6,424 nt of DNA from the IMG/VR virus record IMGVR_UViG_2671180366_000012. The stretch is one strand, 5' to 3'. Below the pieces are notes generated by a model. It made no database searches, was not told the origin of the DNA, and was given only the letters and a program-made list of their open reading frames with translations. This DNA comes from a virus (Duplodnaviria > Heunggongvirae > Uroviricota > Caudoviricetes). The position numbers were made by a program, and so were the translations under genes. Positions within the stretch are counted from its first letter, which is position 1. Each line of letters opens with the position of its first letter. Shown one piece after another: positions 2,525-6,424 of this stretch.

Positions 2525-3808
2525 TTACTTCTTCGCCTCTGCAACCACTTTACTACCCACGCCGCGGTTATTGTATTCCCACATGCGGTTGTAGTTAGTG
2601 TCATTCAGATTGCGCTGTATTTCGTCGTTATCATCTACGCTGCCGGTATTACCCGCAAACGGACGATTAGAGATCACCGCATCGGCCCACGGTTTAGCCG
2701 TGTTAAAACCTTCGTTGATGGCGCTATCACGGATCACCACCTGACCGTTGGTATTGGCATCAACATCCAGCGAGCGGCCCAGTTGCGCCACACCATCACC
2801 GAAAGCATTGAAACGGCTGTTTACGGCGAGGAAACCGTAGTAAATGTTGGACAGCGTAGCCGGTGCAAACACATACGCTTCTTGCTGAGTACGTGAGTTC
2901 ACCACGCGGAATTCGGTGTTATCGAACACCACTGCGCCGCGACCAGAAACGATATCCACATCCCCTTCAATGTAGCTGTTGGTCACCAGCGTACGCGGCT
3001 GACGATTCGTTTCCAGACGGTTCTGCACACCGCTGTTGGTGACAAAGAAGGTGTTCTGACGACCGAGAATGTTAACGTTGTTAATCTGTACCTGGTCACC
3101 ATCAGTACGCAGTGCCACCGCCGGATGGTTACCTGCATCTACGCTATCGCCCAGCGTGTTTTCGATGGTCAGATTTTGCAGTTGCAGGCCATTGTTTTGT
3201 GACCAGAAGACCGCAGAGCAGAGAACACCGATACTGTCGCTGCGTTTGCTCTGGCAGCTATCGTACATATACCACGCTGGTTTACCTGGCATATATTTGC
3301 CGCGCGGGTTGACGTCGTGACGCCAGTCGGCAGGGCTCATGCCACCATCAAGGGAAAGCCCAATCTTCACATCAATCGGTTTTTCACCTGTACCGTACAG
3401 AGTAATTCCACCCGGAGCGGCAGGGACATATACCGTTCCCTGATACTCACCAGGCATCACGGCAATATACTGGCGCTTGTTGGTACGCTTGATAATTGCC
3501 GCATCTACCGCCGCCTGAATCGTGGTATGCGTTACACCTTGAGTGCCCGCCGGGCCGACAACAAAGTCAGGTTGCGCAGGCAGGGTAATCGGGGAAGGAT
3601 TCCACGCTGCAGCACCTGGTGTCAGGGATGCAAAATAGTGTTGAGCATCGAAATTCTGCGCTTCTTTTGCCGACAGAATCGGGCGAGAAGAGGTACCAGG
3701 CGCGGTTTGATCAGAAGGACGTTGATCGGGCGGGGTTGAGCTACAGGCGGTCAGCGTCACGCCAAAAGCCAATGCCAGCGCCAGACGGGAAACTGAAAAT
3801 GTGTTCAC
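2525..3808 (-). CDS. ybhC: Outer-membrane lipoprotein YbhC (pectin methylesterase-like fold; annotated as acyl-CoA thioesterase), 427 aa
   Basis: ORF on the - strand; N-terminus MNTFSVSRLALALAFGVTLTACSS is a lipoprotein signal peptide with lipobox LTAC. Start is GTG (complement of 3806..3808) with GGAG 6 nt upstream on the - strand. Stop TAA is complement of 2525..2527. Translation matches what I recall of E. coli YbhC. Confidence 0.88.
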   Translation of the reverse strand: MNTFSVSRLALALAFGVTLTACSSTPPDQRPSDQTAPGTSSRPILSAKEAQNFDAQHYFASLTPGAAAWNPSPITLPAQPDFVVGPAGTQGVTHTTIQAAVDAAIIKRTNKRQYIAVMPGEYQGTVYVPAAPGGITLYGTGEKPIDVKIGLSLDGGMSPADWRHDVNPRGKYMPGKPAWYMYDSCQSKRSDSIGVLCSAVFWSQNNGLQLQNLTIENTLGDSVDAGNHPAVALRTDGDQVQINNVNILGRQNTFFVTNSGVQNRLETNRQPRTLVTNSYIEGDVDIVSGRGAVVFDNTEFRVVNSRTQQEAYVFAPATLSNIYYGFLAVNSRFNAFGDGVAQLGRSLDVDANTNGQVVIRDSAINEGFNTAKPWADAVISNRPFAGNTGSVDDNDEIQRNLNDTNYNRMWEYNNRGVGSKVVAEAKK

Positions 3809-3854
3809 AGGTTGCTCCGGGCTATGAAATAGAAAAATGAATCCGTTGAAGCCT

Positions 3855-3869
3855 GCTTTTTTATACTAA
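3855..3869. other. att core (overlap region O) of attL, sequence GCTTTTTTATACTAA
   Basis: Exact 15-bp lambda core. Upstream flank ccgttgaagcct is the bacterial attB arm; downstream flank gttggcattataaaaaagcattgcttatcaatttgttgcaacgaacaggtcactatcagtcaaaataaaatcattatttg is the lambda P' arm as I remember it. Confidence 0.92.
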
Positions 3870-3950
3870 GTTGGCATTATAAAAAAGCATTGCTTATCAA
3901 TTTGTTGCAACGAACAGGTCACTATCAGTCAAAATAAAATCATTATTTGA
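3870..3950. promoter_or_regulatory. P' arm of attL: IHF H' site (3895..3907, tATCAAtttgTTG) and three tandem Int arm-type sites (about 3915..3947)
   Basis: IHF consensus WATCAANNNNTTR is matched at 3895..3907. Arm-type-like repeats caggtcactat / cagtcaaaat / aaatcattat lie at 3915..3947 and overlap the 3' end of int, as in lambda. Confidence 0.65.
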
Positions 3951-5013
3951 TTTCAATTTTGTCCCACTCCCTGCCTCTGTCATCACGATACTGTGATGCC
4001 ATGGTGTCCGACTTATGCCCGAGAAGATGTTGAGCAAACTTATCGCTTATCTGCTTCTCATAGAGTCTTGCAGACAAACTGCGCAACTCGTGAAAGGTAG
4101 GCGGATCCCCTTCGAAGGAAAGACCTGATGCTTTTCGTGCGCGCATAAAATACCTTGATACTGTGCCGGATGAAAGCGGTTCGCGACGAGTAGATGCAAT
4201 TATGGTTTCTCCGCCAAGAATCTCTTTGCATTTATCAAGTGTTTCCTTCATTGATATTCCGAGAGCATCAACATGCAATACTGTTGGGATGGCAATTTTT
4301 ACGCCTGTTTTGCTTTGCTCGACATAAAGATATCCATCTACGATATCAGACCACTTCATTTCGCATAAATCACCAACTCGTTGCCCGGTAACAACAGCCA
4401 GTTCCATTGCAAGTCTGAGCCAACATGGTGATGATTCTGCTGCTTGATAAATTTTCAGGTATTCGTCAGCCGTAAGTCTTGATCTCCTTACCTCTGATTT
4501 TGCTGCGCGAGTGGCAGCGACAGGGTTTGTTGTTATATGGCCTTCAGCTATTGCCTCTCGGAATGCATCGCTCAGTGTTGATCTGATTAACTTGGCTGAC
4601 GCCGCCTTGCCCTCGTCTATGTATCCATTGAGCATTGCCGCAATTTCTTTTGTGGTGATGTCTTCAAGTGGAGCATCAGGCAGACCCCTCCTTATTGCTT
4701 TAATTTTGCTCATGTAATTTATGAGTGTCTTCTGCTTGATTCCTCTGCTGGCCAGGATTTTTTCGTAGCGATCAAGCCATGAATGTAACGTAACGGAATT
4801 ATCACTGTTGATTCTCGCTGTCAGAGGCTTGTGTTTGTGTCCTGAAAATAACTCAATGTTGGCCTGTATAGCTTCAGTGATTGCGATTCGCCTGTCTCTG
4901 CCTAATCCAAACTCTTTACCCGTCCTTGGGTCCCTGTAGCAGTAATATCCATTGTTTCTTATATAAAGGTTAGGGGGTAAATCCCGGCGCTCATGACTTC
5001 GCCTTCTTCCCAT
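3943..5013 (-). CDS. int: Tyrosine recombinase, lambda integrase Int, 356 aa
   Basis: Full-length ORF on the - strand. Translation matches lambda Int as I recall it, including the C-terminal ...HLLGHKSDTMASQYRDDRGREWDKIEIK with the catalytic Tyr 15 residues from the end. An intact BamHI site (ggatcc, 4113..4118) lies inside the gene. Start ATG is complement of 5011..5013. Confidence 0.96.
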   Translation of the reverse strand: MGRRRSHERRDLPPNLYIRNNGYYCYRDPRTGKEFGLGRDRRIAITEAIQANIELFSGHKHKPLTARINSDNSVTLHSWLDRYEKILASRGIKQKTLINYMSKIKAIRRGLPDAPLEDITTKEIAAMLNGYIDEGKAASAKLIRSTLSDAFREAIAEGHITTNPVAATRAAKSEVRRSRLTADEYLKIYQAAESSPCWLRLAMELAVVTGQRVGDLCEMKWSDIVDGYLYVEQSKTGVKIAIPTVLHVDALGISMKETLDKCKEILGGETIIASTRREPLSSGTVSRYFMRARKASGLSFEGDPPTFHELRSLSARLYEKQISDKFAQHLLGHKSDTMASQYRDDRGREWDKIEIK

Positions 5014-5209
5014 TTCTGATCCTCTTCAAAAGGCTACCTGTTACTGGTCGATTTAAGTCAACCTTTACCGCTGATTCGTGGAACAGATACTCTCTTCCAT
5101 CCTTAACCGGAGGAGGGAATATCCTGCACTCGCGTACCCATCGACGAACTGTTTCAAGGCTTCTTGGGCGTCGCTGGCGTGCGTTCCACTCCTGAAGTGT
5201 CAAGTACAT
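4991..5209 (-). CDS. xis: Excisionase Xis, 72 aa
   Basis: ORF MYLTLQEWNARQRRPRSLETVRRWVRECRIFPPPVKDGREYLFHESAVKVDLNRPVTGSLLKRIRNGKKAKS matches lambda Xis. Its 3' end overlaps the int start by 23 nt (4991..5013), as in lambda. Confidence 0.95.
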   Translation of the reverse strand: MYLTLQEWNARQRRPRSLETVRRWVRECRIFPPPVKDGREYLFHESAVKVDLNRPVTGSLLKRIRNGKKAKS

Positions 5210-5221
5210 CGCAAAGTCTCC

Positions 5222-5235
5222 GCAATTACACGCAA
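5222..5235 (-). promoter_or_regulatory. cII-binding direct repeat TTGC-N6-TTGC of the int promoter pI
   Basis: The - strand reads TTGCGTGTAATTGC just upstream of the xis start codon. In lambda this is the cII recognition motif of pI, whose transcript starts inside xis so that Int is made without Xis. Confidence 0.6.
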
Positions 5236-5236
5236 G

Positions 5237-5257
5237 AAAAAACCGCCATCAGGCGGC
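5237..5257 (-). terminator. Short GC hairpin followed by a U-run on the - strand (terminator-like), overlapping the orf55 stop codon
   Basis: The - strand reads GCCGCC-UGAU-GGCGG-UUUUUU: a 5-6 bp stem from 5243..5247 pairing with 5252..5256, followed by six T (complement of A 5237..5242). The stem is short, so termination efficiency is uncertain. Confidence 0.35.
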
Positions 5258-5416
5258 TTGGTGTTCTTTCAGTTCTTCAATTCGAATATTGGTTACGTCT
5301 GCATGTGCTATCTGCGCCCATATCATCCAGTGGTTATAACAGTCGTTGATGTTCTCTGCTTCGATAACCCTGTTGAATGGCTCTCCATTCCATTCACCTG
5401 TGACTCGGAAGTGCAT
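5249..5416 (-). CDS. Small conserved lambda ORF (55 aa) between xis and the accessory region
   Basis: Not in the supplied track (below its length cutoff). The - strand reads ATG...TGA giving MHFRVTGEWNGEPFNRVIEAENINDCYNHWMIWAQIAHADVTNIRIEELKEHQAA. GGAG lies 7 nt upstream of the ATG. Same size and position as the 55-codon ORF I recall after xis in lambda. Confidence 0.65.
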   Translation of the reverse strand: MHFRVTGEWNGEPFNRVIEAENINDCYNHWMIWAQIAHADVTNIRIEELKEHQAA

Positions 5417-5427
5417 TTATCATCTCC

Positions 5428-5454
5428 ATAAAACAAAACTCGCCGTAGCGAGTT
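5428..5454 (-). terminator. Rho-independent terminator-like hairpin for leftward transcription, downstream of the 142-aa gene
   Basis: Perfect 7-bp stem aactcgc (5437..5443) / gcgagtt (5448..5454) with 4-nt loop cgta. On the - strand it is followed by UUUUGUUUU (complement of 5428..5436). Confidence 0.45.
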
Positions 5455-5499
5455 CAGATATAATTTCCACCAAAGGCAGTAGTTGCTTGATGCTAAGAA

Positions 5500-5928
5500 T
5501 TATTCAATATCTATTCCTGTAATATCTTTTATCTTTTTCCTTGCAAAGCCTTTTGCTAGTGATTTTGAAACACTCATAAGTGTACTAATTCCCTCATCCT
5601 TAAAGTTTGTTTTTATAGCTTGCCAGACATCCTTTTGACGTAAGTCAGCAATAAAATCATGCCCTCTTGCTGTCAACCTCAGTGGTACTTCGATCCAACT
5701 ATATCCAACACCTTCCCCTAACGCTTTGGACAATATATGACCGAACCCAGGTTTTCCATCAACCCTGACTATTAATTCGTAGTCACATAATAATCGCATA
5801 TGGAAAATAAAATCTTGGTCATATCTATTAAAGCCATTATCCTCTAGTTCACTAAGCATCGTGTCAGGGCCACGAGTTTTTTCGAATGCGATAAGTAGAT
5901 CTTTTAGATATTGCTGGTCTAATTTCAT
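5500..5928 (-). CDS. Hypothetical protein, 142 aa, AT-rich moron-like gene in the prophage accessory region
   Basis: ORF with strong RBS: the - strand reads GGAGG-cggca-ATG. Composition is conspicuously AT-rich compared with flanking genes. No signal peptide, transmembrane segment or family motif that I recognise. Confidence 0.75.
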   Translation of the reverse strand: MKLDQQYLKDLLIAFEKTRGPDTMLSELEDNGFNRYDQDFIFHMRLLCDYELIVRVDGKPGFGHILSKALGEGVGYSWIEVPLRLTARGHDFIADLRQKDVWQAIKTNFKDEGISTLMSVSKSLAKGFARKKIKDITGIDIE

Positions 5929-5938
5929 TGCCGCCTCC

Positions 5939-5950
5939 GTGACATGTCAC
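5939..5950. promoter_or_regulatory. 12-bp perfect palindrome GTGACATGTCAC between a -10-like TATAAA and the RBS of the 142-aa gene (candidate operator or 5' UTR hairpin)
   Basis: Perfect dyad at 5939..5950 in the 28-bp intergenic spacer. On the - strand the order is TATAAA (complement of 5956..5961), 5 nt, palindrome, GGAGG, ATG. No good -35 hexamer is apparent. Confidence 0.3.
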
Positions 5951-5956
5951 AGAGAT

Positions 5957-6295
5957 TTATATCATTAATTTTGTTTCGTGCCAGCCTTTGGTCACCCAGC
6001 ATTGTGAGTCACCATTACACGGGCATGAATTAACAGGAACTCTCTCGCCGCACTTACCGCACCGTTTTCTGCTGATCGATTTTATACGCCAGCGCACACG
6101 TGCATCATCCTGGCGGCTCAGTAACGCGATGTACTCACCAAACTCGCAAGGCGCACGCCTGAAGCGACGCGTGGCACAGTTACGCTCCAGCATTTCAATT
6201 TCCTGAGCATCAAGTACAAGCTCCAGCTTACGCATACCGGATGATGCTTGCTTGGCTCTCTGATCGGCTTTGTGCTCTGTTGCTGATTTAGCCAT
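5957..6295 (-). CDS. Hypothetical protein, 112 aa, with C-terminal cysteine cluster (possible zinc ribbon)
   Basis: ORF with AGGA 8 nt upstream of the ATG on the - strand. C-terminal region RKRCGKCGERVPVNSCPCNGDSQCW contains CxxC, CxC and a further Cys; the N-terminal half is basic and predicted helical by eye. Composition is near 50% GC, unlike the downstream 142-aa gene. Confidence 0.7.
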   Translation of the reverse strand: MAKSATEHKADQRAKQASSGMRKLELVLDAQEIEMLERNCATRRFRRAPCEFGEYIALLSRQDDARVRWRIKSISRKRCGKCGERVPVNSCPCNGDSQCWVTKGWHETKLMI

Positions 6296-6424
6296 TCTGC
6301 TTTTCCTGCATCAGGAGAAAGACAATCATGGCGGTGATGCTGCCAACTTACTGATTTAGTGTATGATGGTGTTTTTGAGGGGCTCCAGTGGCTTCCACCT
6401 TTCTCTTGTACACATATCCCAGCC

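Follow-up and report, generated by a model that had tools for sequence, protein, structure and literature searches.

The matS sites of the Escherichia coli Ter macrodomain follow the 13-bp consensus GTGAC[AG]N[TC]GTCAC (PMC3603311, PMC3116907); MatP recognizes their half-sites, GTGAC(A/G) (PMC3603311, PMC7394560), and phage genomes avoid them (PMC3603311). SlmA binds sites such as GTGAGTACTCAC, in which changes at position 5 impair binding and a pyrimidine is preferred at position 6 (PMC3020112). Here we describe a perfect 12-bp dyad, GTGACATGTCAC, that resembles both. It lies in the phage record IMGVR_UViG_2671180366_000012, within a stretch of 6,424 nucleotides that we call the window, in the spacer between two minus-strand genes: p112, which encodes a 112-aa protein of PHROG 536 (the epsilon15 gp49/phiV10 gp55 family), and a gene for a 142-aa DUF2513 protein. 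Judged by comparison across viral and bacterial genomes, the dyad is a conserved, selected element at the ends of p112 genes and not a product of chance. Our preferred interpretation, to which we assign a probability of roughly 0.4, is that it would be a sequence-specific DNA site for a protein with twofold symmetry, most likely p112 itself, that marks the ends of transcription units and alters the behavior of RNA polymerase there, in this case gating expression of the DUF2513 gene.

The dyad and matS have identical GTGACA half-sites, and each is a palindrome whose arms are conserved and whose center is degenerate; the dyad is equivalent to matS (for example, GTGACAGTGTCAC) minus the central base. 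With the SlmA-binding site it shares the 12-bp palindrome length and the outer four bases, GTGA and TCAC, on each side (PMC7394560, PMC3603311, PMC3020112, PMC3116907). A site for MatP, SlmA, or a similar host nucleoid protein, serving the phage as a decoy, a DNA tether, or an organizer, would account for these likenesses, but we consider it very unlikely. matS is strictly 13 bp long, and regular-expression searches of the window and of eight phage genomes returned no canonical copy; SlmA binding calls for a G at position 5 followed by a pyrimidine (PMC3020112), where the dyad has C5 and A6. Moreover, matS sites are scattered over a chromosomal domain, whereas the dyad is found at phage gene ends beside terminators, and a host nucleoid function would explain neither that position nor the linkage to a single phage gene.

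The dyad at the ends of p112 genes

Two scans of viral contigs, in which p112 alignments were found by protein similarity only and the dyad was not used, yielded 141 usable loci representing 80 distinct 3' contexts. The contig sets are rich in close relatives, and these counts are of distinct contexts, not of independent lineages. A perfect dyad was present in 55 contexts, a copy with one change in 9, and a copy with two changes in 3; the remaining 13 had none. The association persists down to about 45% protein identity. In 49 contexts the first base of the dyad falls 4 nt ahead of the stop codon's end, which places a TGA stop within it, while in the others it starts 2 to 6 nt after the stop (+2, +5, or +6). 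The dyad of the window fits this family, GTGA-N4-TCAC starting between -4 and +6 nt relative to the stop end of a PHROG 536 gene. Among the variants, changes were seen only at positions 5 to 8, the arms GTGA and TCAC being invariant. The base ahead of the dyad was T or C in all 56 contexts scored and the base behind it G or A in 54 of 56; beyond this 14-bp core, no consistent base pairing rose above slid controls. The center is self-complementary in most copies (the loop is palindromic in 69% of contexts), and the most frequent variant is found either way round with respect to p112, as GTGACCTGTCAC four times and as its reverse complement, GTGACAGGTCAC, three times. A variant found in both orientations and a self-complementary center fit recognition of the duplex better than recognition of an RNA loop.

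The same pattern extends to well-separated phages. Pectobacterium phage ZF40, whose p112 has 62% identity, carries TGTGACATGTCACA 2 nt past the stop, and Pantoea phage AH07 (55% identity) carries GTGACCTGTCAC overlapping the stop. In TL-2011b and phiV10 the dyad likewise overlaps the stop codon (ata GTG TGA CAT GTC AC), with C10 changed to T in phiV10; the idea that the phiV10 genome ends inside the dyad was rejected, as that record was simply trimmed behind its final stop codon. An Aeromonas homologue at 31% identity is followed only by the degenerate ATGACATGGCAC, and a Yersinia myovirus homologue at 37% identity by no dyad.

Linkage is to p112 and not to the gene that follows it here. We gathered DUF2513 relatives by protein similarity from bacterial genomes and viral contigs. 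Where a p112 homologue lies upstream of DUF2513, the spacer keeps GTGACATGTCAC or a one-change variant while the adjoining bases differ, and this holds in Enterobacter, Yersinia, Serratia-like, and other lineages at 47 to 75% protein identity. In one locus (L125) the dyad stays beside the p112 stop and the DUF2513 start lies about 70 nt further on. The p112-bearing phages TL-2011b and phiV10 keep the dyad without a DUF2513 gene, and distant DUF2513 genes without p112 have no dyad. The initial annotation had tied the palindrome to expression of the 142-aa gene, ahead of whose ribosome-binding site it lies, a view that its presence behind p112 in phages without DUF2513 (TL-2011b, phiV10, epsilon15, and ZF40) and at other operon ends does not bear out. 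A purine-rich sequence resembling a Shine-Dalgarno (SD) sequence follows the dyad in most of the DUF2513-linked relatives, and in epsilon15-like prophages the DUF2513 gene lies between p112 and terS.

As a separate observation, distant DUF2513 genes without p112 (L015, L019-L022, and L128-L131) have a different element, ggcattcacTGAGTGCCTGtGATAATgctaaatta, about 30 to 70 nt upstream of the start, in which a -10-like GATAAT is overlapped by an imperfect inverted repeat, AGGCA-N9-TGCCT. It could reflect autoregulation by the winged-helix DUF2513 protein.

The spacer is also a boundary between modules. Among complete E. coli genomes, 141 carry the whole p112-dyad-DUF2513 unit and more than 500 others match the p112 part only, with homology ending at about window position 5964; the spacer is therefore a junction. 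The 12 nt past the dyad take 38 different forms in the 55 contexts, and similarity between phages therefore ends exactly at the dyad edge. These breaks are what would be expected if the dyad were a recombination linker, a microhomology or cleavage site at module boundaries with little or no regulatory role. One terminator-plus-dyad unit adjoins at least six unrelated sequences; a DUF2513 cassette, a umuD'-like cassette, and a small open reading frame (ORF) each begin right after the dyad; and relics of p112 3' ends remain attached to it in L009, in L094, and probably at the second TL-2011b copy. However, RecA-type exchange needs more than 12 bp, the dyad has no consistently linked recombinase or nuclease, and the inserted cassettes carry one dyad rather than two flanking copies. 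A passive sequence would also be unlikely to keep every base over a range of about 45 to 100% protein identity while the neighboring noncoding bases drift. On this evidence we regard a purely recombinational role as quite improbable.

An RNA element is the main rival to our preferred reading, although we judge it unlikely. The transcript could form a hairpin with the structure Y-GUGA/CAUG loop/UCAC-R between the stop codon and the terminator or next cistron. Such a hairpin might be recognized, in the manner of nut, for a read-through factor (perhaps through the Arg/Lys-rich N-terminal helix of p112); it might govern processing or stability of the message; or it might belong to the terminator itself. 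The order of gene end, dyad, and terminator always runs along the direction of transcription, variation is confined to the would-be loop positions, and the C10-to-T change of phiV10 preserves a G-U pair on the sense strand. One divergent p112 clade has CCGTGAnnnnTCACGG followed by T-rich sequence, extending the dyad to CCGTGA-NNNN-TCACGG plus a T-run, much like a small intrinsic terminator with a variable loop; this terminator feature (CCGTGAnnnnTCACGGcttttt) was met only there. In the window itself, a 9-bp stem covering the SD sequence forms on the minus strand within positions 5915 to 5975 (-10.8 kcal/mol).

Against an RNA role, the core stem is weak, at only 4 to 5 bp, and the window fold is no better than those of shuffled sequences (z = -1.28). 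No compensatory changes were seen in the arms; the flanks are limited to Y...R, R...Y pairs never being seen; RNA folding does not require the palindromic loop found in 69% of contexts; most copies lack a following T-run; and no Rfam family matches the dyad region. The extension that masks the SD sequence (UCUCU ... GGAGG) is limited to the lineage of the window, the SD-covering part being absent elsewhere. The suggestion in the initial annotation that a hairpin masks the 142-aa message is therefore borne out as far as the stem in this sequence goes and does not extend to other lineages. The lambda nut (boxB) and Q-binding elements are likewise short dyads upstream of terminators in phage operons, and the dyad can occupy a nut-like position, after the last early gene and ahead of the terminator that fronts the packaging genes. 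Unlike those elements, it has no boxA, has a 4-nt self-complementary loop in place of a GNRA-like pentaloop, and is accompanied by no N or Q homologue.

Recurrence beside terminators in complete phage genomes

Perfect copies of the dyad, expected at about 0.0024 per 40 kb, number one in Chlobot, two in TL-2011b, one in Citrobacter phage Omnitron (plus two one-mismatch copies), and three each in Kp4865-1, HEMP4, and epsilon15. Two P22-like Salmonella phages without p112 have no perfect copy. An intrinsic terminator lies 0 to 41 nt from 10 of the 13 perfect copies in these six complete genomes, on one strand only and downstream of the gene end.

The arrangement is clearest in epsilon15. The first copy is at the stop of the p112 homologue gp49, which closes the rightward early operon and precedes terS; the second is at the stop of gp18, with which the long structural operon ends; and the third is between terL and the convergent gp50. 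For both gp49 and gp18 the stop is a TGA inside the dyad, in the same register, and curated rho-independent terminators follow them at 39646-39672 and 19531-19556, respectively. The curated operators of the epsilon15 repressor (NC_004775.2), which read ATTACC-N5-GGTAAT, were rejected as an identity for the dyad. They too are palindromes repeated in these genomes, and the p112-terS interval that holds a dyad also holds one of them, but they are unrelated in sequence and occupy the 5' rather than the 3' ends of operons.

The exceptions to terminator proximity are instructive. In the window and in Chlobot the dyad and the terminator (window positions 5455 to 5436) are separated by the DUF2513 gene; the window has no intrinsic terminator in the first 40 nt or so past the dyad. 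In the Klebsiella phage Kp4865-1, one copy has a LexA-controlled promoter behind it and another lies within a gene. A scan of viral contigs for exact TGTGACATGTCACG returned the same classes of location, including the terminator-plus-dyad unit with its at least six unrelated partners, and at least 9 of the 19 copies away from p112 ends were on contigs that also bear a p112 gene.

Several individual copies have unusual surroundings. The second dyad of TL-2011b (L138, 32240-32320) follows ant and directly abuts a terminator, and the 22 nt ahead of it (ggatgtgcaaaacgaaactatc) look like a p112 3' end, perhaps a relic left in place. In several Klebsiella and other enterobacterial epsilon15-like phages, a perfect LexA box, TACTGTTTAAATATACAGTA, overlaps a TTGACT-N17-TACTGT promoter right after the dyad (L139 at about 12710-12760; 5 to 7 nt past the dyad in L143, L144, L161, L172, L360, and L389); this promoter drives a gene whose product starts MGFPSPA... 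and resembles a pre-cleaved UmuD' homologue. Within genes, the exact 14-mer was found as ATG CGT GAC ATG TCA CAG (MRDMSQ), opening a Q-like antiterminator gene (L148, L153, L158, and L210), and as ..RDMS.. about 20 codons before the end of genes whose product we take to resemble YdaT (L157, L165, L166, L173, and L192); three contigs among those with MRDMSQ or RDMS copies also carry diverged p112 genes. The intragenic matches to the 14-mer as a whole (RDMS or VTCH codons, the Q-like N terminus, and zinc finger CxxC codons) were taken as unrelated or coincidental, although the MRDMSQ and RDMS copies may be functional. Also returned by the 14-mer scan, viral contigs of 64 to 68% GC contain dense arrays of TGTCACG/CGTGACA half-sites in both orientations (L160, 10760-10860; L208, 1885-1960; L179, 755-800; L189, 3140-3185). 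Those of L208 and L179 are inside the apparent linker of a replication-initiator-type gene and resemble origin iterons, and the arrays as a class are probably unrelated to p112.

The spacer and its neighborhood in the window

In the window, ybhJ-like and ybhC genes of E. coli give way, at the lambda attachment site, to the left end of a lambdoid prophage. Its features around the dyad are as follows.

3943-5013, minus strand: int
4991-5209, minus strand: xis
5249-5416, minus strand: 55-aa ORF
5436-5455, minus strand: intrinsic-terminator-like hairpin plus T-run 3' of the DUF2513 gene, closing the unit p112-dyad-DUF2513
5500-5928, minus strand: 142-aa DUF2513 gene (Pfam PF10711, E = 9e-11), a cassette inserted downstream of the dyad
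5929-5956: 28-bp spacer from the p112 TAA stop to the DUF2513 ATG
5933-5937, minus strand: SD sequence GGAGG of the DUF2513 gene, adjoining the dyad and 5 nt ahead of the ATG, as read from the sequence
5938-5951: 14-bp extended element YGTGACATGTCACR, reading T...G on the coding strand here and defined by flank conservation among relatives
5939-5950: perfect 12-bp dyad GTGACATGTCAC, core GTGA-N4-TCAC with a preferred CATG center
5957-6295, minus strand: p112, 112-aa gene of PHROG 536 (E = 7e-48)
6328-6395, plus strand: IS1 terminal fragment (inverted-repeat end), 97% identical to the IS1 ends in P1

The coding strand of the spacer reads ATA TAA atctct GTGACATGTCAC GGAGG cggca ATG; the dyad begins 6 nt past the p112 TAA and lies 10 bp upstream of the DUF2513 ATG, just where the initial annotation had described a perfect palindrome between two accessory genes. 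Judged by the window alone, such a palindrome is not above chance: one perfect 12-bp palindrome was found against a mean of 1.78 in 500 dinucleotide shuffles, 83% of which had at least one. The significance of the dyad comes solely from its conservation and recurrence in other genomes, and chance was rejected on those comparative grounds only, the window statistics being unremarkable. No second copy was found in this type of prophage; no other copy, with up to two mismatches allowed, is present in the window, and Chlobot, a phage of the same prophage type, has one in 46.5 kb. A search of the literature collection available to us returned no paper with the exact 12-mer, and the ZX5 paper concerns other regulators.

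The position of the dyad ahead of a start codon invites comparison with an operator at a spacer promoter controlling the 142-aa gene, possibly as autoregulation by the DUF2513 protein. That protein is confidently modeled by AlphaFold2 (predicted local distance difference test score [pLDDT], 92) with a predicted winged-helix fold, and its top Foldseek matches are regulators of the MarR/PadR/HxlR type, at E values of 0.12 or above only. In addition, a weak CTGGCA-17-TATAAA can be read across the p112 end in the lineage of the window. However, a consensus scan of positions 3800 to 6424, from which weak promoters could escape, predicted no sigma-70 promoter in or beside the spacer and no minus-strand promoter near 5930-6000. 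On that scan we rejected an operator that overlaps or adjoins the -35 and -10 hexamers of a sigma-70 promoter. TATAAA lacks the conserved final T. The hexamer that the initial annotation had read as -10-like is made up of the final Ile/Val codon together with the stop; phiV10-type relatives have neither it nor TATAAA. Epsilon15-like phages without DUF2513 carry two or three dyads, and the DUF2513 genes that have their own promoter have AGGCA-N9-TGCCT and no dyad. An operator at this spacer thus appears highly improbable, and of the original proposal of an operator for a dimeric regulator we retain the dimeric protein, which the strict sequence and twofold symmetry fit, and not the promoter.

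Nor does the dyad qualify as an intrinsic terminator, for which a GC-rich stem of at least 5 bp and a U-run are needed; none was called there, and the sequence that comes next, GGAGGCGGCA, has no T-run.

Control by LexA in the SOS response, also raised initially, we consider a negligible prospect. The motif CCGT-N8-ACAG is indeed present on the plus strand at 5937-5952, and the coding strand reads CTGT-GACATGTC-ACGG through the dyad, but of the CTG and CAG that are nearly invariant in such boxes, CAG is changed to CGG, and a regular expression for CTGT-N8-ACAG finds nothing in the window. The internal spacer GACATGTC is 50% GC and not AT rich, no promoter was called, and the flanking bases that create the resemblance vary among relatives. 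Genuine LexA boxes of this group of phages have the sequence CTGTTTAAATATACAG or CTGTATAAATATACAG, and in some relatives the box TACTGTTTAAATATACAGTA lies a few bases past the dyad.

Upstream of p112, about 66 bp of an IS1 end, 33 bp from the p112 start, breaks the native sequence, which diverges from IS1 past position 6395. Phage Chlobot, identical to the window over 5400-6334 (100%), shows this part of a lambdoid leftward operon without interruption, and in this intact relative the sequence runs on into a UmuD-like remnant where the window has the IS1 fragment. A UmuD-like remnant likewise closely precedes p112 in AMSHJX01, another intact relative of the prophage. In E. coli E1433, an IS1 of the same orientation directly adjoins the GGAGG of DUF2513, with the dyad and p112 gone, an arrangement that would fit an IS1-mediated adjacent deletion. 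The deposited Chlobot annotation (L001, 4558-5036) lists a 47-aa "transcriptional regulator" and, overlapping it in another frame, a 106-aa "UmuD-like protein," leaving the conserved 112-aa ORF unannotated; the deposited calls look wrong. No match for p112, DUF2513, or the 55-aa ORF was found in the PADLOC library of defense systems.

p112 as a candidate dyad-binding protein

PHROG 536 is annotated as "transcriptional regulator" (E = 7e-48 for p112). In the family alignment a conserved basic N-terminal helix, MAKSAAERKAAQRARQ, is followed by KLELxLDxQELEML, a second helix, and a Cys-rich tail (CGKCG-x7-CPC-x5-CW-x4-GWH in the family and CxxC-x8-CxC-x5-C here). Residues 9 to 48 weakly match NCBIfam PRK11675 (YbfE, "LexA regulated protein"; E = 0.007), a model matched by 5 of 11 diverse family members. 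YbfE belongs to the CopG-type ribbon-helix-helix (RHH) proteins, and an RHH domain, in which an N-terminal beta strand precedes two helices and which forms a dimer, is present in MatP too. From these matches it is plausible but not established that p112 is an RHH protein, and p112 has no detectable homology to MatP. The AlphaFold2 monomer, of low confidence, consists of coil at residues 20 to 29 and helices at 30 to 43 and 52 to 76; a poor monomer model might be expected of an obligate dimer. No covariation was seen between the p112 beta-strand residues and variants of the dyad center. The operators of RHH proteins (Arc, Mnt, CopG, and MetJ, or YbfE-like proteins) are likewise short symmetric sites for small dimeric proteins encoded nearby, but classical ones overlap the promoter of their own operon, whereas the dyad is at a gene 3' end and at other operon ends, and its center is the least conserved part.

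The preferred reading, a DNA site for a symmetric protein, draws together several of the patterns described above. Strict conservation, symmetry that includes the center, Y...R flanks, a variant in both orientations, and recurrence at defined positions all argue for recognition of duplex DNA by such a protein. p112 is the prime candidate because the linkage to it reaches unrelated phage types (lambdoid phages, ZF40, and AH07), and the placement of the dyad between stop codon and terminator suggests control of polymerase at unit ends. The target, the identity of the binding protein, and the direction of the effect are what we infer from these sequence patterns. The dyad travels with the 3' end of the p112 gene, and the epsilon15-like podoviruses, as the putative parent lineage, have extra copies at other unit ends, shortly ahead of intrinsic terminators. 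In the proposed mechanism, p112, once made, would occupy the dyads and change the behavior of RNA polymerase at the unit end, as a roadblock, an aid to termination, or a loading point for a read-through factor. In the window, a DUF2513 cassette has been inserted between dyad and terminator, and protein bound 10 bp upstream of the DUF2513 start would throttle or gate read-through from p112.

A number of observations weigh against this interpretation. The dyad is missing at 13 of the 80 p112 ends, and Chlobot, the intact relative of the prophage, has a single copy. Conversely, the dyad is kept beside DUF2513 where p112 is a relic of about 30 to 40 nt (L009, L094, and L096) and in E. coli prophages whose p112 carries an internal stop; such losses of p112 with the dyad retained may be recent. 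p112 has no sequence or profile match in the Protein Data Bank and no Pfam domain, its AlphaFold2 monomer is poor (pLDDT, 58), a Foldseek search with it returned nothing meaningful, an hhalign comparison with MatP was negative, and its RHH assignment stems from matches at E = 0.004 to 0.007. A single RHH dimer normally reads the center of a dyad, here the least constrained part. The constant order of gene, dyad, and terminator would be expected of an RNA element as well, and binding of the dyad by p112 is itself a step that we infer.

The prophages with an interrupted p112 form a lambdoid subset in E. coli (L280-L285; H37/H38, which are L007 and L008), in which p112 stops at codon 40 (RN*ATRR) and is called a pseudogene by PGAP, with the dyad and DUF2513 intact. 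Given the IS1 fragment upstream of p112 and the internal stops in these sister prophages, the dyad of the window may be an inherited passenger rather than an element in active use.

A wider proposal, which we put forward as speculative and somewhat unlikely, is that the dyads would belong to an undescribed operon-end control system of epsilon15-like temperate phages. The dyads, each a matS lacking one base, stand between the final stop codon and the intrinsic terminator of several units. In such a system p112, as a small YbfE-like protein with a Cys-rich tail that the last early gene encodes, would bind them, as DNA or as nascent RNA, and switch termination; it might, for instance, let transcription of the early operon continue into the packaging genes or insulate convergent units. 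The dyads would also serve as joints for swapping cassettes such as DUF2513.

For the window alone the practical consequence is modest: the dyad arrived with the p112 cassette in a lambdoid prophage that has an IS1 fragment upstream. The wider interest lies with the epsilon15/phiV10 group (genus Uetakevirus), which includes serotype-converting phages of Salmonella and E. coli O157 and in which the control of late genes and operon boundaries is essentially uncharacterized. A strict dyad and one uncharacterized gene family make a concrete pair, one protein and one 14-bp site. The near identity of the dyad to matS bears on why prophages avoid true matS sites. If p112 does bind the dyad, this would give a function to a PHROG with hundreds of members and would explain why unrelated cassettes are joined exactly there.

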